Below, piece by piece: positions 2,441-64,000 of a stretch of DNA of 64,000 bases; the first letter of the stretch is position 1, and every line of letters begins with the position of its first letter. The stretch lies in the NCBI GenBank assembly GCA_964215915.1, contig CAXPEB010000066.1:34349-98348 (forward strand). The letters run 5' to 3'. A model generated the notes under the pieces. The model made no database searches and was not told the origin of the DNA. It saw only the letters and a program-made list of their open reading frames with translations. Source of the stretch: Bacteroidia bacterium (GTDB lineage Bacteria; Bacteroidota; Bacteroidia; UBA8524). The translations under genes were made by a program, and so were the position numbers.

Positions 2441-2443
2441 ACG

Positions 2444-6857: not shown

Positions 6858-6890
6858 CCACATCCATGCCGGATAAATCGATATAATTGG

Positions 6891-42000: not shown

Positions 42001-42235
42001 TGTGCTCTATCCGAACCCTGCCACCGGTTTGGTTACCGTGGATTTCGGAAGTGTTCTGACCGAGTCAGCTACCGTGCAGGTTTATGATATGACCGGAAAA
42101 CGGGTACATAGTCAACAGGCCTCTTCCGGTTCCGCTTCCATGAAGCTGAACCTGGATCTGGCACCTGGTACCTATCAGGTACACCTGGTGTCCGGAAAAC
42201 TCAATAAAGTGCTTTCTCTTCAGATTACACGCTGA
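36074..42235 (+). CDS. Large T9SS cargo / putative adhesin 4: ALK/LTK-like glycine-rich domain - Ig-like - fn3 - beta-helix - PKD-PKD-CUB-PKD-PKD - GEVED - 5x DUF5011 - type A CTD
   Basis: Signal peptide ending THA-Q; FTNAGAAGQYGPTQAQ...WIVPQTGLY...ILVGQKG plus poly-Gly runs; fn3 LTGLNERTTYYFYVR; DIDGNERC..GADES; GEFEDY; CTD LYPNPATG...GTYQV. Confidence 0.85.
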   Translation: MRNMLLKRAWPVLAACVLFITTTHAQTYTFTNAGAAGQYGPTQAQVNTAYTGTPLAGQVLVSGGIQYWIVPQTGLYSIAATGAKGYGTYGGRGAYMSGEFILNAGDTLKILVGQKGAPPVGSGTNQYGGGGGSFLTYFNNTPILIAGGGGGSWASSHTSTTDASTGTSGNTAANGPTNGAGGTNGAGGVDGGIAGGGGGLLGDGGDVSGGKAFINGGAGGRAATNGGEGGFGGGGGANSWDNRRGGGGGGYSGGGGAGSTTTGFPEGGGGGSYNIGMNQTNMAGIGTGDGIIVIKVLSSGATNDVGVISIDSPNVYCAGIHNVVATIQNFGKNVVDSVTLNWSMNGVAQTPFKFIGTIDTIGGTGGPTRQVTVGSFNFTSAAYTVKIWSSNPNGGNDTVNTNDTLTRVKQANLPAPGGLKALTVNPYNATLAWSGGSVSNTWAYVNATSAITPTGPGTVVAHDSVYLTGLNERTTYYFYVREICQTGDSSTWAGPLVYRTPCATILNGNYTLNPALPASATNFRTFANAVLALTECGVSGPVNIHVASGTFNERIEITEIPGASSTNLIRFVGAGRTSTILSNAGTSTANFVTLMFDGADFVEFRDMTIRGTGASNGIGVMFINKADSNALRNVNVTVNTTATGATVTGITFSGSKTSASTYADNGNYNHIDSVTVTGGYYGIRLNGGSTTLPIVGNKITNTTIRDHYYYGIYAYYNSQLVVDNCYMENTRNTANADGLYTTYMGNPRFTNNTIISGDYALYMSNLNTAYYDANLVSEVANNKIVSTADYGVYASGSGNFRFVHNSVSVSSAYALYFTGGSSVRMFNNHIQNYRTSANSYSMYATCGFDSLDYNNYWTLGTGIMFNFQGTTYNDFASYQGVAAGLGFDVNSYNQDPGFLSPTNLALDQSIINLRGKFAGWYYDIDGNERCEFAPTLGADESYFATPSPDAILVQEDSVFVSSPAKFYSAFTPLANVLLDYTWYVDNAVVSKERNYRHVFGTTGNYEVKLRVRSCTGVDRDSVMVNVINPSSIPNTDFTASKLVVDVLEPSQLSDLSDHGATQWEWTAEPSYDVIFSDAFISDPQVLFLSPGEYKICLTTWNSFGQGNMLCKTAYIKVNDDASLCSATESTLPAGRLTDEGGANGNYTANSNCSFLIHPCAGEVTLRFTQWLLSDADDELRVYDGTDNSGTLIGTFNGNSNLPGGTNGLVASSGKMFIEWSTSPAGQTAGFVAYWTSTPDPNTPKPVADFVTQDSVFIGQVASFVSTSTGDALSYQWDFDVPFLQAGIDGGKKESDRYQWNTPGTYPVALMVYNCGGGDTLQKQITVYAPVSAPVVGFTASRTKVPVLSTITLFDSSLQGGTAWEWTITPEVTVNMIGLPTDKDLKVSFLKSGQYTVQLKVTNSVGSDSLIKTAYIDVFDYCSPVVGSASSDVAISRVKFGTIDNASSSGAETYTSYVDLLPAVDLALRDSFDIRIERQSTVDPMSRKVWIDWNNDGDFTDAGEEVAFEASTKSLYYTARIGVPSTANLGFTTLRVGVSYGQDANKPCGINPTGEFEDYPVRITVDKQAPVITLMGMDTVWVEQGYSYTDAGAVAMDNVDGNLTPVMTTLNPVDTAMVGVYTVRYNVADNDGNQATERIRVVVVTPDVTKPVIILTGPASVTVTAMTNYTDSGATASDYYLKDLTPQLQFGDNVDLNSLGTYYYWYTVVDAVGNKDSVAREVVVVDDVAPVLQLAGANPLVMEVHTSINEPGYTVGDNYYSTVLVEIDSSMVNKHVIGVYPMTYTVTDGSGNVTVVTRLVSVEDHTLPLVILTGADTVVVDVFNTYIEQGVQVTDNYCSALTWSVNQKPNTSVLGEYTLIYTSVDCNGNTAVPVTRIVRVVDRQAPVLTLNGTAAVSMMRWESFTDPGVTIRDNYYDESILQTVLQISGNFDPNWVGFYSICYQVTDPSGNVSAQVCRTIEVLENTTGVQDMNGSAIVLYPNPATGLVTVDFGSVLTESATVQVYDMTGKRVHSQQASSGSASMKLNLDLAPGTYQVHLVSGKLNKVLSLQITR

Positions 42236-50247: not shown

Positions 50248-50736
50248 ATGTCAATGCTCGAAGAAAGAGAAAGCTATAAACACCTATTCGCTAAGAACCT
50301 TCTCAAGAGATGGTTTCTTGAACAAGATACTAATAATGACTTTTGTAGCGTAGCACAATTCAATTGGCGTTCAAATTATGGAATATTTACGGAATTGGAG
50401 TTCTATGAGACTTCAAATCCATTCTATTTTGAATTATCGGATGGGCTGAGAGAATATTCGAGTGAAAGAAGTAAAAATCCTCTGGACTGGTTTGATCCAG
50501 ATTTTAATAGAGGAAAGATTCTGTTTGTGCCGGACATCACCCTTTTTCACAAGGGTTCGGCTGTTAAACTTTTGGAGGTTGTTCATACCAATTCAGTTCC
50601 CGATTGGAAAAAGCGACGGATAGAAAAGTTCTTTGCGGGAAATCATATCGAAGTATATGAAATCCAGGCTGAGGAAATACTTCGGCACGACAAGACCATA
50701 GTACCGGCTTATTTAGAATGTAGACAAATCATTTAG
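50248..50736 (+). CDS. Hypothetical protein, possible PD-(D/E)xK-like nuclease fold
   Basis: AT-rich 162-aa ORF with its own -7 box; ESYKH near the N-terminus and FVPDI...LEVVHTN motif. Confidence 0.6.
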   Translation: MSMLEERESYKHLFAKNLLKRWFLEQDTNNDFCSVAQFNWRSNYGIFTELEFYETSNPFYFELSDGLREYSSERSKNPLDWFDPDFNRGKILFVPDITLFHKGSAVKLLEVVHTNSVPDWKKRRIEKFFAGNHIEVYEIQAEEILRHDKTIVPAYLECRQII

Positions 50737-50744
50737 ACTTTTAA

Positions 50745-51394
50745 ACCCGTTGTGCTGTTAAAGAATTAGAATAGAAGTTGGTCAAACCAATGGAACTTAA
50801 TAAATCCATGGCTATGGAAATGACAAGTATACCGTAAACGGATTGTAGATTCTATTCCTTGTTTGATTATCAAGCCGGCCAGAGAGAAGAGATGCCGGAG
50901 TCTATTCAATCCATGATCAGGCATTACTGGTAAAGGGGTTTTCTGCGGTAAGTAAGTCGTATTTCTTCGGATACAAACTTTAACCAGTTATCAGCGAGAA
51001 AGGGGTATTTGATGAGATGCAGGTGACCCCTAGTAATGTATATGATATTAACTTTTGAAAACCTGGAAAACCACCAGTAGTCAGGGAAAGGTGCTCATCG
51101 GGGATACTTGTCAGCCAAAGTACAGCTGGGCTTGTTTGAATCATACAAAATCAAACTTGAAGTACAATACCGGAACAACATGAATGAATAGGTATAATCA
51201 ATCTTAAATACCGCAGATGACGCAATCGAACTGAAACCATGTTCTCCCGGTTCTGCAACCAGTTCATGTTCATGAGAAACTATGCAAAATCATATTTAGG
51301 TTGGCTTACAAGAGCTTGGTCTAAAATTACCTCCCTCCAATTGTTTGGAAGACCATTAAGCGGCATCAAACACACAGTCTATAATACAGCGGGT
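50745..51394 (+). mobile_element. Degenerate, internally deleted IS982-family insertion sequence with a transposase pseudogene
   Basis: Imperfect terminal IRs: ACCCGTTGTG at 50745 and TACAGCGGGT ending at 51394. Interrupted transposase fragments IVDSIP, YFFGYKL*PVISEKGVF...TPSNVYDI and ETMFSRFCNQFMFMRNYAKSYLG...SKIT, with stops and frameshifts. Confidence 0.8.
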
Positions 51395-51684
51395 TAAAGT
51401 ATAATGAAGGCGAATATATAGGGTTCACACAAAGTACAACCTAAGGATTTTGTTGCGGAGGGAGGTTGGTGCGGTAGGAAGGCGCCTTCAGGAAAACTGT
51501 CCTTTTTCACCCATTTTTAGAAAGAAAAATGGGTATGATCACAAAGGAACAAGCAAAGTGAAAGGTATTCAAAAGTATTGAAGCATCTTTTGTCAACAGG
51601 TATTGATCCAAACCTCTGAACATGGTTCCACTTTTTGGTACTGTAGAATGACCGGAGTTATATTCGGGAATCCATACGGACAGC

Positions 51685-52272
51685 ATGAAAAAAATCCTCT
51701 TTTCGATGATCCTGTTGTGCGGTCTAAGTTTCCGTGGTATTGCCCAGGAAAAGGGCGATTGGGAACTTGGGCTTGGTGCAGGGGTGCTGACCACCAACGA
51801 TGTATTCGAATTTCTTGATGAGTGGTACCAGGATAACGAAAACCCAGATACCATGGACATTCGACTCACCCAATATATTCCAGCTTTTACGGCTACTTAC
51901 CGTTACCTGGCTTCTCCCCGTCTCAGCCTGGGCTTTGATCTGAGCTACCAGTACTTTCGAGAGGAAGTGAGCCATGCCGGACAAGGTTACGGAGATATTC
52001 ATTTCAGTTTTGTCACTCTGGCCACAGGCTTTGATTACCACTATGTTGCCAGGCCCTGGTTTCGGATGTATTCCGGACTGACAGCCGCGGTGACCTTCAA
52101 TGAAAATTATTACCGGGGCAAGGACCCGCAAAGGGAAGAGCACTATACTACCCGCTTCAATTGGCAGTTGACACTTGCCGGTTTCCGCGTGGGAAGACAC
52201 TTTGCCGCTTTCGGGGAACTTGGCGTAGGTTATCGTGGCGTGGCTTGCCTGGGTGTGAATTATCGATTTTGA
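51685..52272 (+). CDS. Outer membrane beta-barrel protein
   Basis: Signal peptide ending GIA-Q, alternating amphipathic strands, C-terminal GELGVGYRG...GVNYRF with terminal Phe. Confidence 0.8.
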   Translation: MKKILFSMILLCGLSFRGIAQEKGDWELGLGAGVLTTNDVFEFLDEWYQDNENPDTMDIRLTQYIPAFTATYRYLASPRLSLGFDLSYQYFREEVSHAGQGYGDIHFSFVTLATGFDYHYVARPWFRMYSGLTAAVTFNENYYRGKDPQREEHYTTRFNWQLTLAGFRVGRHFAAFGELGVGYRGVACLGVNYRF

Positions 52273-52277
52273 TCAGT

Positions 52278-52850
52278 ATGGAACAAGTGTATATAGAAGG
52301 ACAACGCTTTGAAGGGGAAAACTTTACCGAGTCTTCCCTCAAAAAAGGGGAGTACGAGAACTGCAGCTTCTATCATTGTAGCATGCTGGAGAGCAATCTC
52401 CGCGAAATCCGCTTCAACAACTGCGAATTTGTGGGCTGTGATCTCAGCCTTTCCAAACTTAACCAGACTTTGTTCCGCGAGGTGCACTTCCGCGACTGCA
52501 AGATGCTTGGCCTCCATTTCCAGCCATATAGCAGCTTCGGCTTCCGGTTTGATTTTACGGGCTGCAACCTGAGTAACTGTACCTTTTACCAGGTAAAATC
52601 CCAGGGAACCCGGTTCACAGATTGCGTGCTTCACGAGGCTGTGTTCGACGAATGTGATTTCAGCGAAAGCGTTTTCAACCGCTGTGACCTGCTGAATGCC
52701 CGCTTTGAGAATTGCCGTTTGCTCTCCGCCGATTTCCGCACGGCTTTTAACTACCGCATTGATCCGGACCTCAACCAGGTGCGTGGAGCCCGGTTTTCCG
52801 GCCCGGGAGTAGCCGGTCTTCTGGATAAATACGGCATCGTGGTGGAATGA
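52278..52850 (+). CDS. Pentapeptide repeat protein
   Basis: Start moved to ATG 52278 (MEQVYIEG). Continuous pentapeptide repeats (NCSFY, NCEFV, GCDLS, ECDFS, RCDLL, SADFR). Confidence 0.9.
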   Translation: MEQVYIEGQRFEGENFTESSLKKGEYENCSFYHCSMLESNLREIRFNNCEFVGCDLSLSKLNQTLFREVHFRDCKMLGLHFQPYSSFGFRFDFTGCNLSNCTFYQVKSQGTRFTDCVLHEAVFDECDFSESVFNRCDLLNARFENCRLLSADFRTAFNYRIDPDLNQVRGARFSGPGVAGLLDKYGIVVE

Positions 52851-53239
52851 TGGACAGGCCAATAAGGATTCTGGTTCTCTGCAGCCGCAACAAACGCCGA
52901 AGCCGTACGGCGGAAACACTCTTCCGGAATGATCCGCGTATGGAGATTCGTTCGGCCGGGCTGAGTCCCGATAGTACCCGAAGAGTTACCGAAACGGATT
53001 TACGCTGGGCAGATCGCATCCTGGTTATGGAAGACAAGCATGCACGTCGTCTAAGGGAAGAATGGCAGCACCTGCAATTGAACCGGTTGGAGGTTCTCCA
53101 TATCGAAGATGAATATGCGTATATGGATGATGAACTGGTCTCCCTGCTTAATGACTTAATTCCGCTTATCTGTAATCATGCAAGCCAATATCACCCCGGA
53201 AGCAGAGGCTTCACAGCTCAAAGTGCTGGTATTTGTTAG
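52847..53239 (+). CDS. Low-molecular-weight protein-tyrosine-phosphatase-like protein
   Basis: P-loop C-x5-R (LCSRNKRRSRTAE), RSAG, WADRILVME, IEDEYAYMD. Confidence 0.85.
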   Translation: MMDRPIRILVLCSRNKRRSRTAETLFRNDPRMEIRSAGLSPDSTRRVTETDLRWADRILVMEDKHARRLREEWQHLQLNRLEVLHIEDEYAYMDDELVSLLNDLIPLICNHASQYHPGSRGFTAQSAGIC

Positions 53240-53825
53240 AAGCAGTGCCTGGGTTATGATCATCCTGGCGGTATTCCTGTTGTTTCGCGACGGGATTGCC
53301 ATTTTCAGTTTGCTGAATTGGCGGCTCTTCACCGAATCCATTTCCTTCCCATCCGAATTTTCATACCGCCAAAAGGACATGGATATGTCACGGGTACTAA
53401 TTATTGGGTTTTACCTGAGAAGCATGCTGGCCTTACTCATTCTGCCAATTGGAGTGGGTTTATTGTATCGGAAGAACTGGGCGAGGATTGCTTACCTGGT
53501 GCTTTGCGTCATGCTATTTGTGGGTCTATGCCTGGGCTTACTCGTGTACTATGGGGAGCTTTTAGAGGTCATTCAGGATAAAATGTCCATGATTTATGGG
53601 TTGGAGGAAGAGAAAAGTACGGTCTATGGAAGGATGGAACTTATAAGTGAAACGGTTAAGGTCGTACTCATAGGAAATGCCACGTTAATAACCCTGTTGA
53701 TCTGGCTGATGGTTCGCGTAGCCGTTCGATTTACCCGTAGTGAGGTTCGGGCGGTATTTCATGAGTCGGTTACCGTTGCTTACCCCGCTGGGGATATCAA
53801 AGACGAACAAACGAAAACCCCTTGA
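53178..53825 (+). CDS. Hypothetical integral membrane protein (about 4 TM; start could be ATG 53256)
   Basis: Four hydrophobic segments; GLLYRKNWAR motif. Confidence 0.65.
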   Translation: MQANITPEAEASQLKVLVFVRSSAWVMIILAVFLLFRDGIAIFSLLNWRLFTESISFPSEFSYRQKDMDMSRVLIIGFYLRSMLALLILPIGVGLLYRKNWARIAYLVLCVMLFVGLCLGLLVYYGELLEVIQDKMSMIYGLEEEKSTVYGRMELISETVKVVLIGNATLITLLIWLMVRVAVRFTRSEVRAVFHESVTVAYPAGDIKDEQTKTP

Positions 53826-53834
53826 CCCCATTTC

Positions 53835-54491
53835 GTGAGAATTCACCATCTTTATAAAGTGAATTTCAGAAAACTAATTCTCATCCTGTTACTGAGCGTA
53901 TTCAGCCGCTCATTATTTGCCGAATACAAAGTATTGTCTACCGAACTCCTCATGGAGACAAATGAAGGGAGGCTTATCCATGGCTATGCCATCATTAGTA
54001 GCCTGCCTGTTTCCATGGATTCCCTGAATTCGGAAAATTGGTTACTGAACAATTTAAGTAACGGTTGGATGGACTCTGTAACCTATTCTTCAGATCGGCT
54101 GGCCTACTATTTTGTGGAGGAAGGAAGTGCTGAACTCAGGCATGAATACCTGCTGTTGGGAGAACAAAGGTTTCCCGTGAATCGGATACGCAGGATAAAG
54201 CTGATTATCTGGGAATGGGAGAGTTCTTCAAACGAGATAAGCTCAGACCTGAAAATGCAGGACGAGGTCTGGATGCGAGAGAAACCATTGCGTTCGGTAC
54301 ACTACTACGGTACATATTGTGATTTCCTGATCTTCATCCATAAAGAATCCTCACAAACAGATCAGTTGCTTGCAGAACTGAAGGTACTGACCGATGCAGC
54401 TGCGGTATCCGGGGAACCGGGCGATTACCGGGCCGTCCTGAAGAAATTCAACGGACAAAAGGTGGTGATCATTACTACCTGCATCTGTTAG
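53835..54491 (+). CDS. Hypothetical secreted protein
   Basis: GTG start, signal-peptide-like N-terminus (SLFA-EY), no recognised motif. Confidence 0.6.
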   Translation: MRIHHLYKVNFRKLILILLLSVFSRSLFAEYKVLSTELLMETNEGRLIHGYAIISSLPVSMDSLNSENWLLNNLSNGWMDSVTYSSDRLAYYFVEEGSAELRHEYLLLGEQRFPVNRIRRIKLIIWEWESSSNEISSDLKMQDEVWMREKPLRSVHYYGTYCDFLIFIHKESSQTDQLLAELKVLTDAAAVSGEPGDYRAVLKKFNGQKVVIITTCIC

Positions 54492-54582: not shown

Positions 54583-55770
54583 ATGTCCAATTCACTCTTC
54601 AGGGATAAAGCACTGAAAAAGATCACCGCTCCGGAGGAGCTGGAAAAACCCCTTCGCATAGTGGGTCCCGGATACCGTTTTGTATTGCTGGCACTCGCGC
54701 TGCTCGTGCTTTTTGCCGTGATCTGGTCCTTTGCAGGCAGGCTTCCCATGAGTGTGAATGCCAATGGGATAGTTACCAGCCAGCGGGGCCTGCAACTGGT
54801 CAGGATACCATTTGGGGGTGTTATCAATGAGATAAAGGTAAAAACAGGGGATACCGTTCAACAGGGTGACCTGATCGCTACGGTAGAGCAACTTGACCTC
54901 CAGTTTGAGATCCGGCGGTTACAGAGTGAGTTCAACGACCTGAAAGAAACCTATGCCCGTTATTCGGAATACGCTGATCCGGTTTCTCGTGCACGAAGAA
55001 CCCAGGAACTGAATCGCTCGGTTCAGGCATGGGAAGACAGTGTGCGCCGTATAGAAGGTGAATTGAGTCGGTTAGGACCGGATGAAGACGGTTTGCGGCA
55101 GTCGCGTTTGGACATAGCCCGGCAATTCCGGGAAGAGTTTTCCTGGAAGTATACCGAAGCCACCAATTTTAAGGTAGCCGAACTGCTTACGCTGAAAAAC
55201 AACATGGACGAAATCCGCCATCTCCTCAACCAGAAACGAAGCGAGTACCAGATGAAAACACAACTGGTCAGTCCGTATGATGGCGTGGTCGTGGAACTGA
55301 GTCTCGGGGAAGGCGATGTGTTTGAAGCTTCTCACCCTGTTGCTACCCTGGAAAACCTTCAGGTGGAGTCTACTGACCTCGAAGGCGTATTATTTGCCGA
55401 TGCCGCACAAGCCAAAAATATACATGCCGGAATGGAAGTGTTTGTCCACCCGAGTACTGTGGCGGTGGAAGAATACGGGTACCTGAAAGCCAGCGTGGTG
55501 GAAGTGGGAAAATACCCGGCCTCCAGAGCGGGTCTTTTCAACCTCCTAAAAAACGAGGAACTCATTGACCGGCTAAGCCGTAACAACCTCCCGGTGTACG
55601 TTCGGGTAAAACTGATCCCCGACAAACAGGCGCCATCGGGCTTTGCCTGGACTTCCGGAACCGGCCCCGATTTTAAGGTGCTCAGCGGAACCCTGGTTGA
55701 TGCGCGTATCATCCTGGCTGAAAAACGACCGGTTGAATTGATTTTTCCATCCGTAAAGCTGAGCCATTGA
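54583..55770 (+). CDS. NHLM/NHLP bacteriocin-system secretion protein (HlyD-family membrane fusion protein)
   Basis: LFRDKALKKITAPEELE N-terminus, one TM, lipoyl-like halves (GDTVQQGDLIA; SPYDGVV), PSTV..EEYGYL and FAWTSGTGP, as in the NHLM secretion family. Confidence 0.9.
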   Translation: MSNSLFRDKALKKITAPEELEKPLRIVGPGYRFVLLALALLVLFAVIWSFAGRLPMSVNANGIVTSQRGLQLVRIPFGGVINEIKVKTGDTVQQGDLIATVEQLDLQFEIRRLQSEFNDLKETYARYSEYADPVSRARRTQELNRSVQAWEDSVRRIEGELSRLGPDEDGLRQSRLDIARQFREEFSWKYTEATNFKVAELLTLKNNMDEIRHLLNQKRSEYQMKTQLVSPYDGVVVELSLGEGDVFEASHPVATLENLQVESTDLEGVLFADAAQAKNIHAGMEVFVHPSTVAVEEYGYLKASVVEVGKYPASRAGLFNLLKNEELIDRLSRNNLPVYVRVKLIPDKQAPSGFAWTSGTGPDFKVLSGTLVDARIILAEKRPVELIFPSVKLSH

Positions 55771-57914
55771 AAGGGTCCGGGCAGCATAAACCGGTGAAAA
55801 CGCCGATCCTTTTCCAGATGGAAACCGTAGAATGTGGTGCCGCTTCCCTGGGGATCATCCTGGGGTATTTCGGCAAATTCGTTCCCCTGGATGAATTACG
55901 GACAGCCTGCGGAATCTCCCGCGATGGATCCAAAGCCAGTTACCTGGTGAAGGCAGCCAAGGCCTACGGCCTGGAATACAAAGCATATAAAAGCAATTTG
56001 GAAAAACTGCTTCTGGAAAAGGGGCCGTTTATCGTCTTCTGGAAATTCAACCACTTCCTGGTGGTGGAGGGTTTCTCCCGCAACCAGGCCTACCTCAATG
56101 ACCCAGCCTCGGGCAGAAGAAGGGTAAGCCTGGATGAATTTGACGAGAGCTTCACAGGTGTAGTACTGAAGTTTGAAAAGGGCCACGGCTTTCAACCGGG
56201 AGGAAAACCTTTCAGCGCTGCCGGCTCCCTGAAAAAATGGATACATACGGGAAAAAGGGAGTTCCGGATGTTGGCAGCACTGGGTATCCTGGCCATTTTC
56301 CCGGGGATGGTGCTACCTGTATTTTCCAAAGTTTTTGTCGACCAGCTGATCGTGGCGGGATTGAGCAACTGGATCTGGCCCTTTTTCTGGGGCATGCTGG
56401 GATGCATCCTGATCAAATCGGCGATGGAATGGATGCAGATCAGTATCCTGGAAAAACTGGAGATAAAGTTCAGTGCCCTTTTCGGAAGCGCTTTCCTGCA
56501 TAAAATACTCAGTCTTCCCTCTCAGTTCTATCTCAACAGAAGCAGTACCGAAGTAGCGGGACGCATGCAGGCGCTTCGCGAAGTCAGTACTTTTATCACC
56601 GGGGATTTTGCCAGCACTCTGTTGGGATTGACGGGTCTTCTGTTCTATTTTCTTATCCTGCTATTCTATAACCTGCCCCTGGCTCTGATCAGTGCGGTAC
56701 TTGCCCTGACTTCCTTTTTTCTCCTGTATTACATGGCGAAGAAAAAACAGAACGACAGCCAGCTCCTGGCCCAGGATGAAGGAAAACTGGCGGCGGTCAC
56801 CGTCAACGGCTTTTCCATGCTGGAGACCCTGAGAGCCGGAGGGCGCGAATACGAATTTCTCAAAAAATGGAACGGCCTGCTGGCCAGGGTGGTCGGCATT
56901 CAGCAGGGAATAGCCCGTTTGAACAGCAGGCTGAATATTCTGCCTCAGTTGCTGTTTACGCTCAATATGATCGTGATTCTTTATTGGGGTGGACACCTGG
57001 TGATGCAGGGCGCGATGACCATGGGGGTATTGCTCGCTTTTACGGTATTTATCCATGCCTTTTACAAGCCGATTCTCGACCTCGTAAGGCTGGGCACCGG
57101 TATACAGGAATTGCAGGGAAAATTGGTCCGGGTGGATGAAATGTTTGAAAAAGAACTTCCTGAAACGGCAAGCGGGAACGAAACCCGGGCAGGAGAAAAA
57201 GGACTCCGGATAAGAGGCCTTGACTTCGGGTATAACCGCATGCAGGAGCCCTTATTCCGGGAACTTGAAATTACCATCAACCCCGGTGAACAGGTAGCTT
57301 TCGTGGGAAGCTCGGGATCCGGGAAATCCACACTCGCAAAACTCATCACCGGTATCTACCGGCCCTGGTCCGGGGATATACGACTGGATGGAGAAGATAT
57401 CCATAGCCTGCCCGAATCGGCGTTGGCCGGACGCCTGGCCGTAGTCGATCAGGATCTGTTCTTTTTTGAAGGGAAGATTCGCGACATCCTTACTTTATGG
57501 AACCAGGAGATCAGCGAAGAAGAAATTATCCGGGCCTGCAAAGACGCTTGTATACACGATGCCATCATCAGCCGACCGCTCGGATATTACGGTTACCTGA
57601 AGGAAGGCGGCAGCAATTTTAGCGGCGGACAGCGACAAAGGCTGGAAATTGCCAGGGCGCTGATGCGTAACCCCGATTACCTGATCCTGGATGAAGCCAC
57701 CAGCGCCCTGGATCCCATGACGGAAAAGAATATCCTGGAGAAGCTCCGGGAAAGGGCTTGTACCATCATCCATATCGCCCACCGGCTGAGTACCATCCGC
57801 GACTGCGACCGCATATTTGTGCTGGAGAAAGGCCGCATCGTCGAAGAAGGAACGCATGACCAATTGATCAAACTTAACGGACGATACACCACCCTGGTAA
57901 AAAGCGGAGAATGA
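55767..57914 (+). CDS. NHLM-type peptidase-containing ABC transporter (C39 peptidase + TMD + NBD)
   Basis: VKTPILFQMETVECGAASL (Cys), FNHFLVVEG (His), LNDPASG (Asp); GSSGSGKST, FSGGQRQRL, LDEATSALD. Start TTG 55767 or GTG 55794. Confidence 0.93.
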   Translation: MKGSGQHKPVKTPILFQMETVECGAASLGIILGYFGKFVPLDELRTACGISRDGSKASYLVKAAKAYGLEYKAYKSNLEKLLLEKGPFIVFWKFNHFLVVEGFSRNQAYLNDPASGRRRVSLDEFDESFTGVVLKFEKGHGFQPGGKPFSAAGSLKKWIHTGKREFRMLAALGILAIFPGMVLPVFSKVFVDQLIVAGLSNWIWPFFWGMLGCILIKSAMEWMQISILEKLEIKFSALFGSAFLHKILSLPSQFYLNRSSTEVAGRMQALREVSTFITGDFASTLLGLTGLLFYFLILLFYNLPLALISAVLALTSFFLLYYMAKKKQNDSQLLAQDEGKLAAVTVNGFSMLETLRAGGREYEFLKKWNGLLARVVGIQQGIARLNSRLNILPQLLFTLNMIVILYWGGHLVMQGAMTMGVLLAFTVFIHAFYKPILDLVRLGTGIQELQGKLVRVDEMFEKELPETASGNETRAGEKGLRIRGLDFGYNRMQEPLFRELEITINPGEQVAFVGSSGSGKSTLAKLITGIYRPWSGDIRLDGEDIHSLPESALAGRLAVVDQDLFFFEGKIRDILTLWNQEISEEEIIRACKDACIHDAIISRPLGYYGYLKEGGSNFSGGQRQRLEIARALMRNPDYLILDEATSALDPMTEKNILEKLRERACTIIHIAHRLSTIRDCDRIFVLEKGRIVEEGTHDQLIKLNGRYTTLVKSGE

Positions 57915-60070
57915 CGATGCAGGATTTCAAAAGCAGAACATACGCCAGTCTGGCCGGGGTGTTTCGGAATAAGAACATGAAAGGAGAGCGCGACTTTGAC
58001 CTGCCCCATGACCCTCTTGTGGATGCGCTCACCCGGGTCTGTGAACGCCTGAAAATTAAAGCACAGTTTCCTCCCGACTGGCCCCTGCTTTCAGGGCAGG
58101 AAGAAAAACTGGAAGCCTTTGCCGACAGCACATCCTGTGCTTTTCGCGAGGTTGAACTGAACAGCGATTGGTACCGCAATGATTTTGGGATACTGCTCTG
58201 GTTCGACAAAGAAGGGGAGATTTACCTGACGGAAAAAGGTCGGGGAAATCAACCGCGGGTATGGAATGCCGGGAAAAAGGAAACCGAATTCTGGTCGGTG
58301 CATGAAATTGAAGAAAAGGCAGAGCTCTGTCTGATGTTCTTTCCCCGGTTCGGAAGTGAAGCACTGCGGTTTTCCGGTCTTGTTAAACGGGTACTGAAGA
58401 ACCGCGGAAAAGAATACCTGGGAATTGGGCTGGTTTCTGCTTTGGCAGGATTGATTTCCATCCTGTTTCCCGTCGGAGTGGGGCTTTTATTCGGACAAGT
58501 TATCCCATCCGCCAATCAGAACCTGCTTTTGCAACTTGCTCTGGTGCTGCTTGTGGTAGCTTTTTCCGGTGGGTTGTTCCAGCTGGGGAAAAATCTGCTT
58601 AGTGCCCGGCTGCAGGGTTGGGTTGACTGGGACCTGCAAACTTCCCTAATGGACCGTATCCTGCGCCTTCCCTTGCAGGAACTCAACAAAGAAAACGCAG
58701 GCACCTTAGCCAGGAAGGTCTTCTCGTTCCGTCAGATATTACGTTTCATCAGCTCCGGGATCGCGGATCTGGGCTTTAGCTTCCTGTACATACTTTTCAA
58801 TCTTTTCAGCCTGTTCTTTTTCAGTCCTGAACTGGCCTGGCTGGTTATGGGCGCTGGCTTGCTGTATGCCCTGTTTCTGGCTTATACGGTCAGGCAGGAA
58901 ATCAGCCTGCACCGGGAGATCAAGCGGCGGAACATCTGGCTGGATGCCATGGTCATTCAGTTTATGAAAGGTCTGAACAAGATCAAACAGGCCGCCGCCG
59001 AATGGCAGATCATGGCCTTCTGGAGTCATCATTTTTCAGGGATACTTTCACTGGAACGGCAGTCGGGCAGGCACCGTCTGTATATGGGTTTGCTGAATGC
59101 CAACCTCGTTTGGCTGGTTCAGGCAGTTTTGTTCGTGGTATTTCTGTTCCGGTATTCGGATCTCGGGAGCGGTGCCTTCCTGGGCTTGAATGCGGCATTC
59201 CTCAACGTGTTCCTGGCACTGGGCACGCTGAGTGGCGGAATCCGTCAGCTGAGAGAATTGGTGCCCGTTTATTCGGAGTTGAAGCCCTTTCTGGAAACTC
59301 CCACGGAACACTATGACAGTGGAAAGCTCAAGCTGGGTCTGACCGGACGGATTGAGGTAGAAAGGTTGCATTTCCGCTATTACCCGGATGGTCCGTTGAT
59401 CCTCGATGACTTCAGCCTTACTGTGGAACCCGGTGAAAGTGTGGCCCTGGTTGGTCCCTCAGGTTCCGGTAAATCCACCTTGTTGAGGCTGCTTCTTGGC
59501 TTTGACAAAGCCGAGTCGGGAGATGTTTTGTATGACGGACAAAGTATGGATACCCTGCACCTGCGGCATTTGCGGCAGCAGTTCGGGGTGGTGCTCCAAA
59601 ATGACCAGCTGCTGGCCGGGAGTATTTATGAGAACATTGCAGGCACCAAGAACCTAAGTATGGATTTGGCCTGGGAGGCTGCCGGCAAGGCATCCATACG
59701 TGAAGAGATAGAAGCCATGCCCATGCAAATGCATACCCTGATCTCCGATCATGCAAGTACATTATCCGGCGGACAGAAACAGCGCCTGCTGATTGCACGA
59801 GCCCTGGCCGGTAACCCGGCACTGCTGTTTTTTGATGAGGCTACCAGCGCTCTGGACAATGTCTCCCAGAAACACGTGAGCGATACCCTGGACCAGCTTT
59901 CTATTACCCGTATTGTGATTGCACACAGGCTGAGCACTATAAAGGGCATGGATAAGATCGTGTATATGGAAAACGGAAAGGTGCGGGAATGCGGAACCTA
60001 TGAAGCCTTGATGGAAAAAAACGGGTTGTTTAAAAAGCTGGCAGAGAGGCAGATGGCAGAATCCGTGTAA
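57911..60070 (+). CDS. NHLM-type ABC transporter, second subunit (degenerate peptidase-like N-terminus)
   Basis: REVELNSDWYRNDFG N-terminal region without the C39 Cys motif; TMD; GPSGSGKST, LSGGQKQRL, FDEATSALD; ATGA overlap with the previous gene. Confidence 0.9.
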   Translation: MTMQDFKSRTYASLAGVFRNKNMKGERDFDLPHDPLVDALTRVCERLKIKAQFPPDWPLLSGQEEKLEAFADSTSCAFREVELNSDWYRNDFGILLWFDKEGEIYLTEKGRGNQPRVWNAGKKETEFWSVHEIEEKAELCLMFFPRFGSEALRFSGLVKRVLKNRGKEYLGIGLVSALAGLISILFPVGVGLLFGQVIPSANQNLLLQLALVLLVVAFSGGLFQLGKNLLSARLQGWVDWDLQTSLMDRILRLPLQELNKENAGTLARKVFSFRQILRFISSGIADLGFSFLYILFNLFSLFFFSPELAWLVMGAGLLYALFLAYTVRQEISLHREIKRRNIWLDAMVIQFMKGLNKIKQAAAEWQIMAFWSHHFSGILSLERQSGRHRLYMGLLNANLVWLVQAVLFVVFLFRYSDLGSGAFLGLNAAFLNVFLALGTLSGGIRQLRELVPVYSELKPFLETPTEHYDSGKLKLGLTGRIEVERLHFRYYPDGPLILDDFSLTVEPGESVALVGPSGSGKSTLLRLLLGFDKAESGDVLYDGQSMDTLHLRHLRQQFGVVLQNDQLLAGSIYENIAGTKNLSMDLAWEAAGKASIREEIEAMPMQMHTLISDHASTLSGGQKQRLLIARALAGNPALLFFDEATSALDNVSQKHVSDTLDQLSITRIVIAHRLSTIKGMDKIVYMENGKVRECGTYEALMEKNGLFKKLAERQMAESV

Positions 60071-60123: not shown

Positions 60124-60372
60124 ATGGAAAACAAAATCAATGAATTTCTCAGTCGTGTCCAGTCGGACCAATCTCTGGCCGGCAAGTACAAATCCGCAAA
60201 AGACCTCAAAGAGGTTTCAGAGATTGCGGGTAGTCTCGGTTTTCAGATCTCTCCGGCAGATTTTCAGAAGCATTTTGCCGAGAACCTCAGCGAAGATGAC
60301 CTGGATAATATCTCCGGCGGTGCATCTCCTGTAAACCGCACAAGCCACGGAGGCTGGTATTCCGGCGACTAA
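60124..60372 (+). CDS. Nif11-like leader RiPP precursor; predicted core ASPVNRTSHGGWYSGD
   Basis: Nif11 pattern (FL..V.SD..L...........V..IA...GF.I...D) then the double-glycine motif NLSEDDLDNISGG ending at residue 66; sits between a C39 exporter and modifying enzymes. Confidence 0.9.
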   Translation: MENKINEFLSRVQSDQSLAGKYKSAKDLKEVSEIAGSLGFQISPADFQKHFAENLSEDDLDNISGGASPVNRTSHGGWYSGD

Positions 60373-60384
60373 ACTGCAAAAATC

Positions 60385-61491
60385 ATGATGCCGCGCTATG
60401 CTTACGATTTGCTGAAAGCGCTGGAAATTGGCGGTAAAACGCCTGTCCTGCCTTTCGGAGGCTTGTGGTATGCCTGTTCCACAGAAGCAGTGAAGAAGAT
60501 CCTGCATGAGGATGCTCCGCTGTTTGAAAGGGACACGCAGCTTACCCGCTGGGCGGAAGTAGAATCATACTTCCCTCAACAGCCTTTGAACCTGCTGAAA
60601 CATTTCGGCAGACAGGGACGGGTGAAAGAACCTGCTCCGGAATACCCGGACTGGTCAAAACGACCGGAAAAGGAATTGCTTAAGGAGGAGAACCTTGCCG
60701 GAATGCTTCTGGCAAGCTTGCTTCAGCCTTATACCGAAGCCATACCGGAGCAGGTTATTACCGCTTTTCATCAGGCATCTGTTTACCTGGAAGACCGCCG
60801 AAGCGGCCGGGTAGAGGCCTCCCTTCACCTGGATCACTGGCATCAGTCTGCAAGAGAAGCCCTGAGCCAGGCTCTTGGGGAAGTAATGCAGGAGAACGCT
60901 CCGATACCCGACGAGAAACTGTTCAGTGCCGTACTTCACAGCGCTTACCGTTCCGTGCTTAACCTGCTGGGTTGGTCGGCTTACTGGCTGTCTGAAGACC
61001 TTGCTTATGTGGATAACCTGTACGAAGCGGAAGATGCCGTTCAGCTTGAGCGGAAAGTGCATTTGTTCCTGTATGAAGTACTTCGTGTTCATCCCTCAGC
61101 CTGGGTGCTGAGCCGGAGATTAAAAGGGGAATGGAGCCTTGGAGACCGGCATTTCTCCAATGGAGAAGAACTCTTCATACCTATTCTGTGCTTCCACAGA
61201 AGTCCACGGTACTTTGAACAGCCCGAAGCATTCCTTCCTTCCCGCTTTGAAAGCAGGATGAAAGACCCCTGGTCTTACCTTCCCTTCGGAAGGGGAGTAC
61301 ATGCCTGTCCGGGTTCTACCGCCGGCCTGGGTATTGCCGCCTCCTTTGTACGGTTCCTTGTACGGGAGAAACTGCGTCCCGAAAAGTCGTTAATCAATCC
61401 GGGGCAGGAGGATACCACCATGCCCATCTCCCTGAATCCCTTTATCCCTTATCAGTTTAACCTGGTCAAACAATCAACCCTCGTATCATGA
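60385..61491 (+). CDS. Cytochrome P450, putative RiPP-modifying
   Basis: K-helix EVLR, PSRF meander, heme motif YLPFGRGVHACPG; starts 12 nt after the precursor stop. Confidence 0.88.
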   Translation: MMPRYAYDLLKALEIGGKTPVLPFGGLWYACSTEAVKKILHEDAPLFERDTQLTRWAEVESYFPQQPLNLLKHFGRQGRVKEPAPEYPDWSKRPEKELLKEENLAGMLLASLLQPYTEAIPEQVITAFHQASVYLEDRRSGRVEASLHLDHWHQSAREALSQALGEVMQENAPIPDEKLFSAVLHSAYRSVLNLLGWSAYWLSEDLAYVDNLYEAEDAVQLERKVHLFLYEVLRVHPSAWVLSRRLKGEWSLGDRHFSNGEELFIPILCFHRSPRYFEQPEAFLPSRFESRMKDPWSYLPFGRGVHACPGSTAGLGIAASFVRFLVREKLRPEKSLINPGQEDTTMPISLNPFIPYQFNLVKQSTLVS

Positions 61492-62792
61492 CACTGTTCT
61501 CCGATTACTGCGAAACACCCGACCTCGTCCGTATCAATACCTTCGAAGACGAAAAAAACCGCTATTACCTCCTTCCGGATTACCTGGAATGGTATTACCA
61601 GGATATTGATAAACCGCGTAAGTGGTACATCAAGCCGAAAAACAACAAGACCCTGGATTACGATTTCGGGAAGGGAGAGTTCGATCAGTTGCTGGTCTGT
61701 GTCACCAACCGCTGCAATATCGTTTGCGACTATTGCTTCCGGGGTTACAATTTCAGCAAGACCAAAGAAATTCAGTTTGAAGACTTCACCCGCGTTGCAG
61801 ACCACTTCCTGGCCAATTCCGGACCCGGTCGTACTATGCAGTTTACCGGAGGCGAAGTCTTTGTAAAAGAAGGGATAGAGCACTGGTTCAAATACCTGAA
61901 TGATCGTGGTTTTCGTATATGGATGACTACAAACGGGGTACACCGGAAGATTCGGGAGAATGAGCTGATCCGGGAAATTTTTGCCAATACCGGTGCCGAA
62001 CGCTACAAAACCAACGGCCACCATATCCGTGTTTCCCTGGACGGCCCTCGGGCAGAGATCCATGAAAGATACCGGCAGAAAGGCAGCTTTGACAAAGTCA
62101 TCGAGAACATACGCTACCTCAAATCCATAGGGGCATCGGTTTCCGTGAAGTCGGTGATGACCCATGAGAATGCACAGTACCTCGAAGAAATGCTGGAGTT
62201 TTGTCATGAGCTAGGACTCGATGGATGGAATTACAACGTCATCCGCTATACCGGTGCCTTGTCAGACAATCCACCCGAAGATTCCACTCCGAAGATGAAA
62301 GGCACCCTGGATTACTTCGGGTACTATGAACTGGGCCTTATGCTTGTAGATATTCTGGAACGGAAGCCCCATCTGGCCCCCTTGCTGGGTATCAGCCGCT
62401 TTTCCAAAATTCTCAACACCTTGTATATGGACCGGCCCAGTTCCGTCCCCATGTCCTATTACCTGCTGAAATTTGACGGAAATGTGTATTACAACGATAA
62501 CCTGCAATACAGCCGCTATTCACCCGGTAATATCTGGGAAAACGGAATGGATGCCTTTCGGGGGTTAAAGGAATTCAGGCAGCATTTTGATTACGATATG
62601 CCTGCCTGCAAAACCTGCCCGATCCACCGTTTCTGCTTTCAAAAGGGTGACTATGGCGAGTTGTACGAAAAGGACAAAACCCTGTCAAGTGAGTTCCCCA
62701 ATTGCGATGACATCCGAAAGCACTATTTCTACCTGATAGGGTTGAAAGAAAGGGGATTGAAGCTTACGAAAAGTATCTTCCATTATGACTGA
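61488..62792 (+). CDS. Radical SAM enzyme with SPASM-like C-terminus, putative peptide maturase
   Basis: CNIVCDYC (CxxxCxxC), FTGGE, TTNG, VSLDG..EIH..YR; C-terminal CKTCPIHRFC...FPNC. Confidence 0.9.
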   Translation: MTLFSDYCETPDLVRINTFEDEKNRYYLLPDYLEWYYQDIDKPRKWYIKPKNNKTLDYDFGKGEFDQLLVCVTNRCNIVCDYCFRGYNFSKTKEIQFEDFTRVADHFLANSGPGRTMQFTGGEVFVKEGIEHWFKYLNDRGFRIWMTTNGVHRKIRENELIREIFANTGAERYKTNGHHIRVSLDGPRAEIHERYRQKGSFDKVIENIRYLKSIGASVSVKSVMTHENAQYLEEMLEFCHELGLDGWNYNVIRYTGALSDNPPEDSTPKMKGTLDYFGYYELGLMLVDILERKPHLAPLLGISRFSKILNTLYMDRPSSVPMSYYLLKFDGNVYYNDNLQYSRYSPGNIWENGMDAFRGLKEFRQHFDYDMPACKTCPIHRFCFQKGDYGELYEKDKTLSSEFPNCDDIRKHYFYLIGLKERGLKLTKSIFHYD

Positions 62793-63456
62793 GTCTTTGG
62801 CCAACCGTTATCGGGAGGAGGGGTTTATCCTGCTCAAAGGGGTGTATGATCAGTCCGGTCTGCAACGGATCGATCGTGAGATAGACCGGCTGCGCTTCAT
62901 CCATCCCGAACTCTGCACCTTTGAAGATGAAAATGAGGGAAACCGGGAAAAGGTGCTTCATAAAATCTCGCACTTCTGCGAATACAGCAGCACTTTTCTT
63001 GAGGCTGCGTTCCATCCGGGGCTGAAGCAGGCCATAAATGAGTTGTCGGGGGAAGTGTACCTCTGTACCGACAAGATCAATTTCAAAGTGCCCGGTGCAC
63101 GAGGGTTTTACCCGCATCAGGATATGAGTGGCGAATGGCAGTTCTATGTTCCGAACATCATCAATGTATTCATCGCTCTTGACAGAAGCGATACGGAGAA
63201 CTCCTGCCTGGAAGTATCTCCGGGAAATCATCGGCGCGGATTACTGGGCCCCTACATGGGGGCAATTGAAGAGAAACACCTGGAGGGTATGGAATGGATT
63301 CCCATTATTCAGGAGCCGGGGGATGTTCTGATATTCGACGGTTTTCTGCCGCACCGTTCTGCACCTAACACCTCAGACCGCACCCGCAGAATTCTTATCT
63401 ATACCTACACCCGAAAGGAAGACGGGGATATCCGCAATAAGTTCCTGGGAAAATAG
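62785..63456 (+). CDS. PhyH-family Fe(II)/2-oxoglutarate dioxygenase
   Basis: YREEGFILL, DKINFKVPG, PHQD (HxD), PGDVLIFDG..PHRS.PN.S..RR; 8-nt overlap with the rSAM gene. Confidence 0.9.
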   Translation: MTESLANRYREEGFILLKGVYDQSGLQRIDREIDRLRFIHPELCTFEDENEGNREKVLHKISHFCEYSSTFLEAAFHPGLKQAINELSGEVYLCTDKINFKVPGARGFYPHQDMSGEWQFYVPNIINVFIALDRSDTENSCLEVSPGNHRRGLLGPYMGAIEEKHLEGMEWIPIIQEPGDVLIFDGFLPHRSAPNTSDRTRRILIYTYTRKEDGDIRNKFLGK

Positions 63457-63458
63457 AT

Positions 63459-64000
63459 TCAGAAGAAGGCCATTCCTGTCAGGACCAGTTTCAGCTGAGG
63501 ACTATGGTTGGCAGAAGAGGCATGGATCGCCTTTTCATTGAAAAATACCACGGAATAACGCTTTACGGCAAGTGCAATATGATTCGGATCATCCGGTGAA
63601 ATTGTGCGGATCATCCTGGAAAAATAATCCCGGATTCCGGAAGGTGTATGTTCCAGCAATTCCGGTGTATTGTGGGTATGGATCTTTAAATGTCCCGCTC
63701 CGTCAGAAAAATCATCCAGCGGAATCCATACCCGAACAATTTTCCGGCCTTCCCAATAGGCCGCATCCTGGTGCCAGGGAGTGTACTGTTCGGAAGGACC
63801 GGGTTTTACCACCAGTCTGTCCATAATCAGCTCCCTGCACAATGGAAAAGCCCGATGCACGCTCCGGTTCAGGGTGAGCAACTCGTTTGACGTAAGCAGC
63901 CGGTCGAGCTTGAGCAGCTTCACTCTTCCACGGTTTTGTTCCCTGAAATAAGGGTGCTTTATTAATGTTTCCCGAAGAGCAAGCAACCGAAGCGGATCAG
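63459..64000 (-). CDS. Second PhyH-family Fe(II)/2OG dioxygenase (5' end probably outside the window)
   Basis: WHQDAAYW, VWIPLDD, IHASSAN; reading frame stays open to the window edge. Confidence 0.8.
   Translation of the reverse strand, partial: DPLRLLALRETLIKHPYFREQNRGRVKLLKLDRLLTSNELLTLNRSVHRAFPLCRELIMDRLVVKPGPSEQYTPWHQDAAYWEGRKIVRVWIPLDDFSDGAGHLKIHTHNTPELLEHTPSGIRDYFSRMIRTISPDDPNHIALAVKRYSVVFFNEKAIHASSANHSPQLKLVLTGMAFF

Follow-up and report, generated by a model that had tools for sequence, protein, structure and literature searches.

Which part of a short peptide is the target of the enzymes encoded around it? We asked this of a locus in a 64,000-nucleotide stretch of the genome of a Bacteroidia bacterium (GCA_964215915.1, contig CAXPEB010000066.1, positions 34,349 to 98,348, forward strand; this whole stretch is referred to as the window), in which the gene for a small precursor of the RiPP type (a peptide synthesised by ribosomes and modified after translation) is followed by genes for a cytochrome P450, a radical S-adenosylmethionine (rSAM) enzyme and a PhyH oxygenase. 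The precursor is the product of an 82-residue open reading frame (ORF) at 60124-60372 (+), MENKINEFLSRVQSDQSLAGKYKSAKDLKEVSEIAGSLGFQISPADFQKHFAENLSEDDLDNISGG|ASPVNRTSHGGWYSGD. Its first 66 residues (60124-60321 (+)), ending ...LSEDDLDNISGG, form a Nif11-type leader (PF07862, 4.1e-10 and 40.2 bits against a cut-off of 23.8; TIGR03798, 52.6 bits, above the curated cut-off of 32.3). The core and its stop occupy 60322-60372 (+) in the ORF translation: 16 codons at 60322-60369 encode ASPVNRTSHGGWYSGD, the stop TAA lying at 60370-60372 (gca tct cct gta aac cgc aca agc cac gga ggc tgg tat tcc ggc gac taa).

The original prediction for this locus, made from the nucleotide sequence, had described a core without Cys, with His9, Trp12 and Tyr13 as its only aromatic residues, an internal Gly10-Gly11 and a C-terminal Asp, and a re-reading of the sequence agrees on every point. 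The composition of a single 16-mer is no proof alone; comparison with related precursors supplies it. In the best reading of that comparison, the functional heart of the peptide appears to be its free C-terminal Trp-Tyr-Ser-Gly-Asp (W12-Y13-S14-G15-D16, 60355-60369 (+)), which defines the family by its conservation in related precursors, and not the His-Gly-Gly-Trp-Tyr cluster.

Conservation of the C-terminal pentapeptide

We assembled 21 related precursors, 11 of them from 10 loci with an orthologous rSAM (the window included) and 10 from a profile search. The orthologous rSAMs belong to a clade of 34 proteins, the window's own among them (E ≤ 4e-115; the next match has E 1.5e-17), and the 33 relatives are 44-78% identical. 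An alignment of 33 of the 34 members (A1; the 344-residue fragment P0038 was excluded) was used to scan contigs. Among genome contigs it detected 8 loci, four with an rSAM of the clade (52-77% identity) and four with rSAMs at ≤28%. The former come from a metagenome-assembled genome (MAG) labelled Chitinophaga pinensis (L009), from Pseudoflavitalea rhizosphaerae (L010), from Olleya sp. (L011) and from an Acidobacteriota MAG (L012). Among metagenome contigs it detected 16 loci, five with an rSAM of the clade (46-70%; L017-L021) and 11 with rSAMs at ≤35%.

All nine of the other clade-rSAM loci have a small same-strand ORF, 9 to ~1,150 bases from the rSAM gene, which ends WY[SGA]GD or, once, WYSRE; with the window, the tail adjoins an orthologous rSAM in 10 of 10 loci. 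The cores end NSAVVKQ[T/S]HGGWYSGD in the two tandem copies of L009, ...TNKPTQCWYSGD in L010, ...SSKPTQCWYSGD in L017, ...SFINDGWYSGD in L011, ...SPGPVQWYGGD in L012, ...PNPYQWYAGD in L018, ...TNDYTWYSGD in L019, ...WSAPWYSGD in L021 and ...KSGSWYSRE in L020. For the profile search, a profile of seven Nif11-type precursors (A2) was run against 1.84 billion representatives and returned 1,598 proteins at E ≤ 1e-3. Ten of the best 150 of these matches end W[YF]SGD: P0128, P0129, P0130, P0131, P0132, P0133, P0134, P0135 (WFSGD), P0137 and P0165, the last with a core of only 11 residues, ASVVAQWYSGD. A word-based search with the precursor gave two candidates, itself and P0128.

The pentapeptide is the very C-terminus of the peptide in all 21 precursors. 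Counting from the end, position -5 is Trp in 21 of 21, position -4 is Tyr in 20 and Phe in one (P0135), position -3 is Ser in 19, Gly in one (L012) and Ala in one, position -2 is Gly in 20 and Arg in one (L020), and position -1 is Asp in 20 and Glu in one (L020). Before the Trp, each position carries ≤2 bits (12 sequences). His-Gly-Gly (60346-60354 (+) in the window) precedes the Trp in six of the 21 cores, all in one sub-clade (the window, the two in L009, P0128, P0130 and P0131), and is replaced elsewhere by TQC, NDG, PVQ, PYQ, DYT, SAP and others. A RiPP core with a conserved C-terminal half, as the original prediction had it, is therefore what the family displays (Trp12 21/21, Tyr13 20/21, Asp16 20/21, with an N-terminal half that varies freely), and the C-terminal half is presumably the modified part. 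The test that it had proposed, conservation of the aromatic residues among homologous precursors beside homologous rSAM genes, came out in favour of Trp12 and Tyr13 and against His9 as a general feature.

As a control, we counted stop-to-stop frames of ≥30 residues ending WY.[GR][DE]. The window's own genome holds one among 64,883, which is the window's precursor. Such frames number 10 among 1,572 in nine family loci, with at least one in each of the nine, and none among 2,879 in 19 non-family loci. The pattern had been widened after seeing L020; the strict WY.GD, taken from the window alone, still matches eight of the nine loci. Within the tail, codons change synonymously (TCN/AGY for Ser, TAT/TAC for Tyr, GAC/GAT for Asp), which points to selection on the protein frame of the + strand. 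What the genes encode, how the tail is conserved and that it occurs together with the rSAM are direct observations.

The tail follows the rSAM and not the leader

The Bacteroidota precursors have Nif11 leaders, that of L011 falling below the cut-offs and lacking the Gly-Gly. The precursors of L012, L018 and L021 have in common a second leader type without a Pfam or NCBIfam match, and those of L019 and L020 are very short (41 and 39 residues). Since the tail is kept while the leader type changes between these three kinds (Nif11, unclassified and very short), it follows the rSAM and not the leader. Together, the tail and the rSAM clade span Bacteroidota and Acidobacteriota, and outside Bacteroidota an all-against-all BLAST found only the rSAM and the precursor to be common to the loci. 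The remaining genes nearby differ from locus to locus: L012 has a Trp halogenase and a PhyH-like protein under the threshold, L019 a Methyltransf_33 protein and L020 a second rSAM/SPASM protein. The halogenase (L012:9327-11276 (-)) is a 649-residue protein of the tryptophan-halogenase family (PF04820, 1.4e-116) located directly 3' of the rSAM gene; its presence fits the invariant Trp as a site of chemistry.

Two features of the leaders and their junctions were seen in passing. Firstly, the unclassified leader (L012:7664-7975, L018:586-765, L021:203-409) begins MP(V/L)I/L-R-D..G..(F/Y).IP..(E/D)L.(R/K)(F/Y)(K/Q)VT.EE, and the L012 precursor contains an internal ...LDQIAGG site followed by a 47-residue core. 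Secondly, Gly-Gly-cleaved Nif11-type precursors have cores (60322-60333 in the window) that open with x-Ser-(Met/Val/Ala/Pro)-(Met/Val). All 14 have Ser as the second core residue, and the two residues after it are MM in eight, VV in three, AV in two and PV in one. This start motif, which may have a role in recognition of the cleavage site, is not present in the Olleya core, whose locus has neither the Gly-Gly nor an exporter.

An rSAM clade with a reduced C-terminal domain

The rSAM maturase of the window (61488-62792 (+), 434 residues) has a reduced SPASM-like C-terminal domain: it matches PF04055 (3.6e-21) and gives no match to PF13186. The same holds for the clade, all 34 members of which match PF04055 only in Pfam, whereas more distant matches carry PF13186. 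Seven Cys are invariant in A1, namely C76, C80 and C83 of the SAM cluster (CX3CX2C) and C374, C377, C383 and C406 near the C-terminus. The latter form the pattern CX2CX5CX3G...C, with an invariant Gly at the position of the fourth Cys of the SPASM motif, so that the window's rSAM has neither the seven-Cys SPASM motif nor the Pfam domain. We take the four C-terminal Cys to belong to the second auxiliary cluster, as in the motif of anSME. By this analogy, the pattern suggests a single auxiliary cluster, not two, on a SPASM-like fold.

The AlphaFold model of the rSAM (predicted local distance difference test score, pLDDT, 90.6) is nearest in fold to anSME, CteB and SuiB (template-modelling score on the query, TMq, 0.53-0.62), with SkfB and ChlB also close (overall 0.51-0.62); ChlB, a cyclophane synthase (9gm3, 9gmc), scores 0.56-0.61. 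Because the modelled N-terminus consists of three β-strands (residues 17-39) and no helices, it would not be a full RiPP recognition element (RRE). Searches by sequence gave less: solved rSAMs match the core domain only (best E 1.7e-12), the best curated maturase model is StsB at 68.8 bits against a cut-off of 625 (among the best 25 of 68 NCBIfam matches), and the ESM Atlas returned generic rSAM/SPASM clusters only.

A complex of the rSAM with the precursor was predicted with a score of 0.48, the best of three controls reaching 0.00. The runs have ≥68% of their contacts in common and the partner has a pLDDT of ≥77. The 0.48 mark is reached by 116 of 157 solved complexes and by 2 of 215 mismatched pairs, while scores of ≤0.60 comprise only 18 of the 157 solved complexes plus both passing mismatches. 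The prediction thus lends weak support to binding of the precursor by the rSAM.

A model for maturation of the tail

How might the tail be used? We propose, with a probability of about 0.6, that the rSAM modifies the WYSGD tail, probably by joining the Trp to a C-terminal sp3 carbon, that the oxygenases tailor the product and that the C39 exporter cleaves the leader. In this model, the 82-residue precursor would be made from an operon comprising the precursor, P450, rSAM and PhyH genes. The rSAM would bind the precursor and remove a hydrogen atom from one of the sp3 carbons of the tail, whereupon the resulting carbon radical would add to the indole of Trp12 or, less likely, to the ring of Tyr13. 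The favoured partner is the Asp at the C-terminus, through its side chain, and the product would then be a C-terminal cyclophane of five residues (-2 Da); the alternative is the Cβ of Ser14. A Trp-Asp/Glu bond is compatible with 21 of the 21 cores and a bond from Trp to the Ser14 Cβ with 20 of them, the WYGGD of L012 being excluded. Cyclophane-forming rSAMs act on motifs of three to five residues, as outlined in PMC11499958. PhyH-1, with JmjC and PhyH-2 where present, would then hydroxylate the tail, β-hydroxylation of Asp16 being the most economical guess. The P450 would add a lineage-specific oxidation or aryl cross-link, in the His-Gly-Gly sub-clade maybe via His9. Finally, the C39-ABC/ABC/HlyD exporter would cleave after the Gly-Gly of the leader and secrete the 16-mer.

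Several points weigh against this model. The 21 precursors are not 21 independent observations: ten were taken from a protein library that gives no genomic context, and there are several close kin among them (P0129 resembles L017 and P0132 resembles L011). Phe replaces Tyr once (P0135) and Arg-Glu replaces Gly-Asp once (L020), leaving the Trp as the only strictly invariant side chain. The conserved residues could be determinants of recognition or of bioactivity and not sites of modification. The complex prediction was a weak pass, and homology is silent on the reaction, as the rSAM scores far under every curated maturase cut-off and solved rSAMs match its core domain only. Every chemical step is one that we infer, from the bond and the atoms it would join to the very formation of a cross-link.

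Other explanations for the conserved tail

The alternative that survives best, although we consider it unlikely, is a reaction of the triceptide type, in which the rSAM would join the Trp12 ring to the Cβ of Ser14 in a three-residue cyclophane and the Gly-Asp would serve for recognition only. W-Y-S agrees with the aromatic-X2-X3 definition of such motifs given in PMC11499958, Trp is present in 21 of 21 cores and 20 of 21 have Ser or Ala as the third residue, Ala being a proven acceptor in HaaB according to the same source. ChlB is, in addition, a fold neighbour of the rSAM. In L012, however, the motif is WYGGD, with a Gly that has no Cβ, and yet the rSAM is intact at 52% identity. X2 is free in triceptides, whereas this motif is always C-terminal and keeps its Tyr/Phe, Gly and Asp to the same degree as its Trp; and AmcB, the sole cyclophane-synthase model among the best 25 of 68 NCBIfam matches, is reached with 44 bits against a cut-off of 425. 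The three-residue cyclophane that the original prediction had envisaged for W-Y-S finds its spacing and its third residue in 20 cores, and the Gly of L012 and the AmcB score speak against it.

The original prediction had also favoured a biaryl bond made by the P450 between His9 and Trp12 or Tyr13 across the Gly-Gly. As the defining step of the family, we regard this as improbable. A P450 with intact heme Cys and ExxR does start 12 bases 3' of the precursor, its best curated match is the RiPP cross-linking P450 ApyO, though far under the cut-off, and P450s that join His to Tyr exist (ShyB). Moreover, the two loci with 42%-identical P450s (the window and L009, with three precursors) both have [ST]-HGGWYSGD. 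But His is found in only 6 of 21 cores, Olleya keeps the tail and the rSAM without a P450, and L010 and L017 have P450s of 25-28% identity with TQC in place of HGG. The motifs of characterised RiPP P450s, as far as the accounts consulted describe them, are of the i,i+2 kind (YLY, WxW, YPW, YxWxH), whereas His9-Trp12 is i+3 and Trp12-Tyr13 adjacent; of the hallmarks of P450-cross-linked RiPPs, a heme-Cys P450 beside the precursor is present here, and the aromatics of the core, at 9, 12 and 13 only, offer no pair at i,i+2. ApyO is matched with 60.7 bits against 525, and the fold search gave generic P450s only. As a general feature, the His9 biaryl is not supported. Since His9 and the Gly-Gly occur in only 6 of the 21 cores, a His-centred cross-link would at most be a tailoring step of the sub-clade, an idea that we consider conceivable but doubtful.

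About as improbable is a role of WYSGD as a recognition tag of the follower type, used by the rSAM or in export and left unmodified or trimmed, with the chemistry taking place in the variable part of the core. A terminal position is typical of recognition tags and so suits this idea, and the tail is kept under different leaders, some very short (39-41 residues), so that the enzyme may read the tail and not the leader. The core, however, has no family-wide conserved residue elsewhere, with the ≤2 bits per position before the Trp noted above (12 sequences); the 11-residue core of P0165 leaves almost nothing else to modify; and no extra protease is conserved among the loci.

The two remaining ideas are hardly credible. 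C39 sites have hydrophobic residues at -4, -7 and -12. A second C39 cleavage at Gly10-Gly11, which the original prediction had raised, would free exactly the conserved pentapeptide, but Gly-Gly precedes the Trp in only 6 of 21 cores (QC, DG, VQ, YQ, YT, AP, GS, QE, KT, NY, SA and AQ being found in the others), and positions -4/-7/-12 are Ser/Asn/Gly here as against Ile/Leu/Leu before the leader Gly-Gly, so this proposal is not supported. Spliceases act on Nif11-type precursors. Excision of a tyramine unit at Tyr13 by the rSAM acting as a splicease would suit the near-invariance of Tyr13, but such rSAM enzymes act on XYG motifs (described in PMC11414181) and the window has W-Y-S, Tyr-Gly occurring in one of 21 cores against 18 with Tyr-Ser, one with Tyr-Ala and one with Phe for Tyr; no splicease model is among the best 25 of 68 NCBIfam matches, a search that included no direct comparison with splicease sequences.

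Tailoring oxygenases

Modification of the tail by the rSAM, as proposed above, would be followed by oxidation, and the window locus is the most decorated of those compared, with a P450, two PhyH proteins, a JmjC protein and a dedicated exporter. PhyH-1 (62785-63456 (+); PF05721, 2.5e-24), an Fe(II)/2-oxoglutarate oxygenase, has orthologs in five of five Bacteroidota loci (41-51% identity) in which H111-x-D113, H190 and R201 are invariant. The Olleya locus contains the rSAM, JmjC and PhyH-1 and has no P450, Gly-Gly or exporter. Because only WYSGD is common to its core and that of the window, the target of PhyH-1 would lie within WYSGD; across the five PhyH-1 loci, the conserved residues are W, Y, S, G and D only. 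Thus, of the residues that the original prediction had offered to the PhyH enzymes, Asp16 is among the conserved ones, and Asn5, Arg6, Pro3 and His9 are unlikely as a conserved target of PhyH-1 because they are not conserved across these loci.

PhyH-2 (63459-64000 (-); 201 residues, its start lying 64 bases past the window end; PF05721, 2.2e-11 and 3.1e-11) has an ortholog only in L009 (38% identity). JmjC is present in four of the five Bacteroidota loci, L009 being the exception, with H119-x-D121 and H191 kept.

The P450 (60385-61491 (+), 368 residues) is short and very divergent, and matches PF00067 (1.2e-17) over its C-terminal third only. It is a near-orphan: a search of 5.8 billion proteins (4,433 candidates) gave four matches at E ≤ 1e-3, itself included. 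Cys308 (FGRGVHACPG) and the E231-x-x-R234 motif are invariant in four homologs. The gene occurs in four of the five Bacteroidota loci, with 42% identity in L009 and 25-28% in L010 and L017, and is absent from Olleya. ApyO is its best curated match, and at 60.7 bits against a cut-off of 525 it is not a member of the ApyO equivalog. The structural model, built on a 4-row alignment, is of middling quality (pLDDT 70.4); Foldseek with this model returned generic P450s only (CYP97A3, BM3, CYP51; TMq ~0.5) and no cross-linking P450, and a PDB search by sequence matched the C-terminal third only. The P450 was also tried as the anchor for the comparison of loci; it gave only four weak partial loci, 27-44% identical over 80-160 residues, and the rSAM was used instead.

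Relation to known RiPP systems

The system appears to be an rSAM RiPP on a Nif11 export chassis. Among the closest known systems are the rSAM cyclophane RiPPs. Triceptides (3-CyFE enzymes such as HtkB and HaaB) and the streptide and darobactin types with their longer rings resemble it in having a leader, an rSAM whose C-terminal domain binds Fe-S and a short conserved aromatic core motif, and SuiB and ChlB are among the nearest folds of the window's rSAM. This rSAM differs in belonging to no curated maturase model and in having four C-terminal Cys and no Pfam SPASM match; the substrate differs in its block of five residues fixed at a free C-terminus with an acidic end, one member of the family having a Gly without Cβ.

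Aminopyruvatide (ApyA, with P450 ApyO, B12-rSAM ApyD and MNIO ApyHI) is alike in that a P450 and an rSAM are combined with a reaction at a C-terminal Asp, as presented in 10.1101/2023.10.30.564719. ApyO is the best curated match of the window's P450, and ApyD a weak match of a class-B-like rSAM past the window end. The scores here are, however, far under the cut-offs (60.7/525 and 30.9/750), the core has no YxY motif, and the rSAM that co-varies with the tail is SPASM-like and not of the B12 type. No MNIO/DUF692 protein was found in the ORFs scanned, which extend from 47.6 kb to the contig end. A precedent for a JmjC Fe/2-oxoglutarate enzyme next to an rSAM is BipG of the biphenomycin pathway, which hydroxylates one residue of a RiPP precursor, as outlined in PMC12707348. 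The biphenomycin system differs in its precursor and in having an MNIO and a B12-rSAM.

Mycofactocin (MftA/MftC) and pyrroloquinoline quinone (PQQ; PqqA/PqqE) are alike in that an rSAM of the SPASM family acts on a short invariant motif. In mycofactocin, a small peptide carries this motif at its extreme C-terminus. PqqE matches the window's rSAM over the core domain only (PDB, E 3.6e-4) and has rank 39 in the fold search, and the MftC and PqqE equivalogs are not among the best 25 of 68 NCBIfam matches. In contrast to both systems, no small RRE partner gene is conserved across the loci, and the exporter and leader peptidase argue for a secreted peptide and not for a cofactor. With the Nif11/NHLP export systems, the window has in common both the leader with its Gly-Gly site and the exporter proteins (C39-ABC, second ABC and HlyD). 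This chassis usually carries lanthipeptide, proteusin and spliceotide cores, to which the window's core and maturases are unrelated, so that the Nif11/NHLP system is here a delivery chassis only.

The literature searched contains no description of the tail motif or of the rSAM clade; large similarity-network tables and most subscription-journal papers were outside this search. Neither the motif nor the names Olleya, Pseudoflavitalea and Chitinophaga are in the rSAM survey supplements searched, and the clade may stand unnamed inside a published similarity network. We tentatively raise the possibility, though the odds are against it, that a W-[Y/F]-x-G-[D/E]-COOH tail and a private rSAM clade make up a RiPP class whose founding reaction is outside the known rSAM peptide cross-links. 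If so, one possibility is that the Trp indole becomes bonded to the C-terminal Asp, or that the reaction needs the free C-terminal carboxylate. The Bacteroidota product would be oxidised further by up to four oxygenases (PhyH-1, PhyH-2, JmjC and P450), giving a compact, heavily hydroxylated and possibly metal-binding or redox-active C-terminal warhead, with β-hydroxy-Asp beside oxidised aromatic rings, on a peptide that otherwise varies freely. If the reaction is instead an ordinary Trp-to-Cβ cyclophane, the family would be a new triceptide-like sub-family with a corrected view of which residues matter.

Peptides modified by rSAM enzymes rank among the main sources of novel peptide chemistry and of leads for antibiotics, darobactin being one. 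For genome mining, the family offers a remarkably clean handle in its five-residue C-terminal signature and its small isolated rSAM clade, found in at least two phyla and under several leaders. Because the core can be as short as 11 residues, the minimal substrate should be small and the reaction easy to reconstitute and map. The window's version could yield several new tailoring reactions on one 16-mer.

Gene neighbourhood and exporter

The genes lie on one strand in the order HlyD, C39-ABC, ABC, precursor, P450, rSAM, PhyH. The HlyD-type periplasmic adaptor (54583-55770 (+); TIGR03794 NHLM_micro_HlyD, 271.8 bits against a cut-off of 156.2) has orthologs at 30-43% identity in L009, L010 and L017. 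The C39 peptidase/ABC exporter (55767-57914 (+); PF03412 Peptidase_C39, 8.8e-34; TIGR03796, 878.6 bits against 853.3) is predicted to cleave the leader after the Gly-Gly. The second ABC permease/ATPase subunit (57911-60070 (+)) has no C39 match; TIGR03797 is below the cut-off (631.3 bits against 709.4) yet by far its best match, Pfam detecting ABC_tran and ABC_membrane only. Since the reading frames of P450 and rSAM overlap by 4 bases and those of rSAM and PhyH by 8 bases, these genes appear to form one operon. The genes at 50248-54491, 5' of HlyD, have no counterpart in the related loci, which puts the start of the cluster at ~54.6 kb. The rSAM was not found in 14 other genomes of the window's order (five of the same genus and nine of the same family, 71-98% complete), and the cluster is on this account an accessory element of patchy distribution.

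The 3' flank of the window (the rest of the contig, L003) holds, on the minus strand, the second PhyH protein (201 residues) and a JmjC_2 protein (287 residues, 5.6e-15) and, on the plus strand, the class-B-like rSAM (582 residues), with weak PhpK and ApyD matches far under the cut-off (ApyD 30.9 against 750), and an NAD-epimerase-family protein. Beyond it lies a second Nif11 precursor (L003:9928-10191 (-), ~101.9-102.2 kb of the contig, 3.6 kb past the window end) of 87 residues (TIGR03798, 46.7 bits) with an unrelated core, AAGNPSPPTVMGVRG. The class-B-like rSAM, the epimerase-family protein and this precursor are found in the window's genome only and, because they have no counterpart in the related loci, may belong to a second RiPP system that uses the same exporter. 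A secreted protein of 230-264 residues without a family match (L003:10210-10902 (-), L010:502-1296, L017:530-1294) borders three of the five Bacteroidota clusters, conserved with 24-25% identity.

Scans of 49.5-64 kb for Rfam families and tRNAs gave nothing, and the composition profile has no GC anomaly across the cluster. Among sequencing runs, none of RNA was listed as carrying the sequence, and the one DNA run listed may be that from which the assembly was made. On its 5' side, the segment 50737-51684 is low in GC (0.41 against ~0.49), with no ORF of more than 60 residues, no tRNA and no Rfam match. Further upstream, 10067-33593 and 36074-42235 (+) contain five giant ORFs (1,472-2,990 residues) for surface proteins secreted by the type IX secretion system, four combining a Por_Secre_tail with Ig-like, GEVED and PKD domains and one with CHU_C; their sorting domains assign the organism to Bacteroidota. 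Positions 1-9635 (+) hold a portion of the dcw cluster for cell division (Mur ligases, FtsW, MurG, FtsA, FtsZ).

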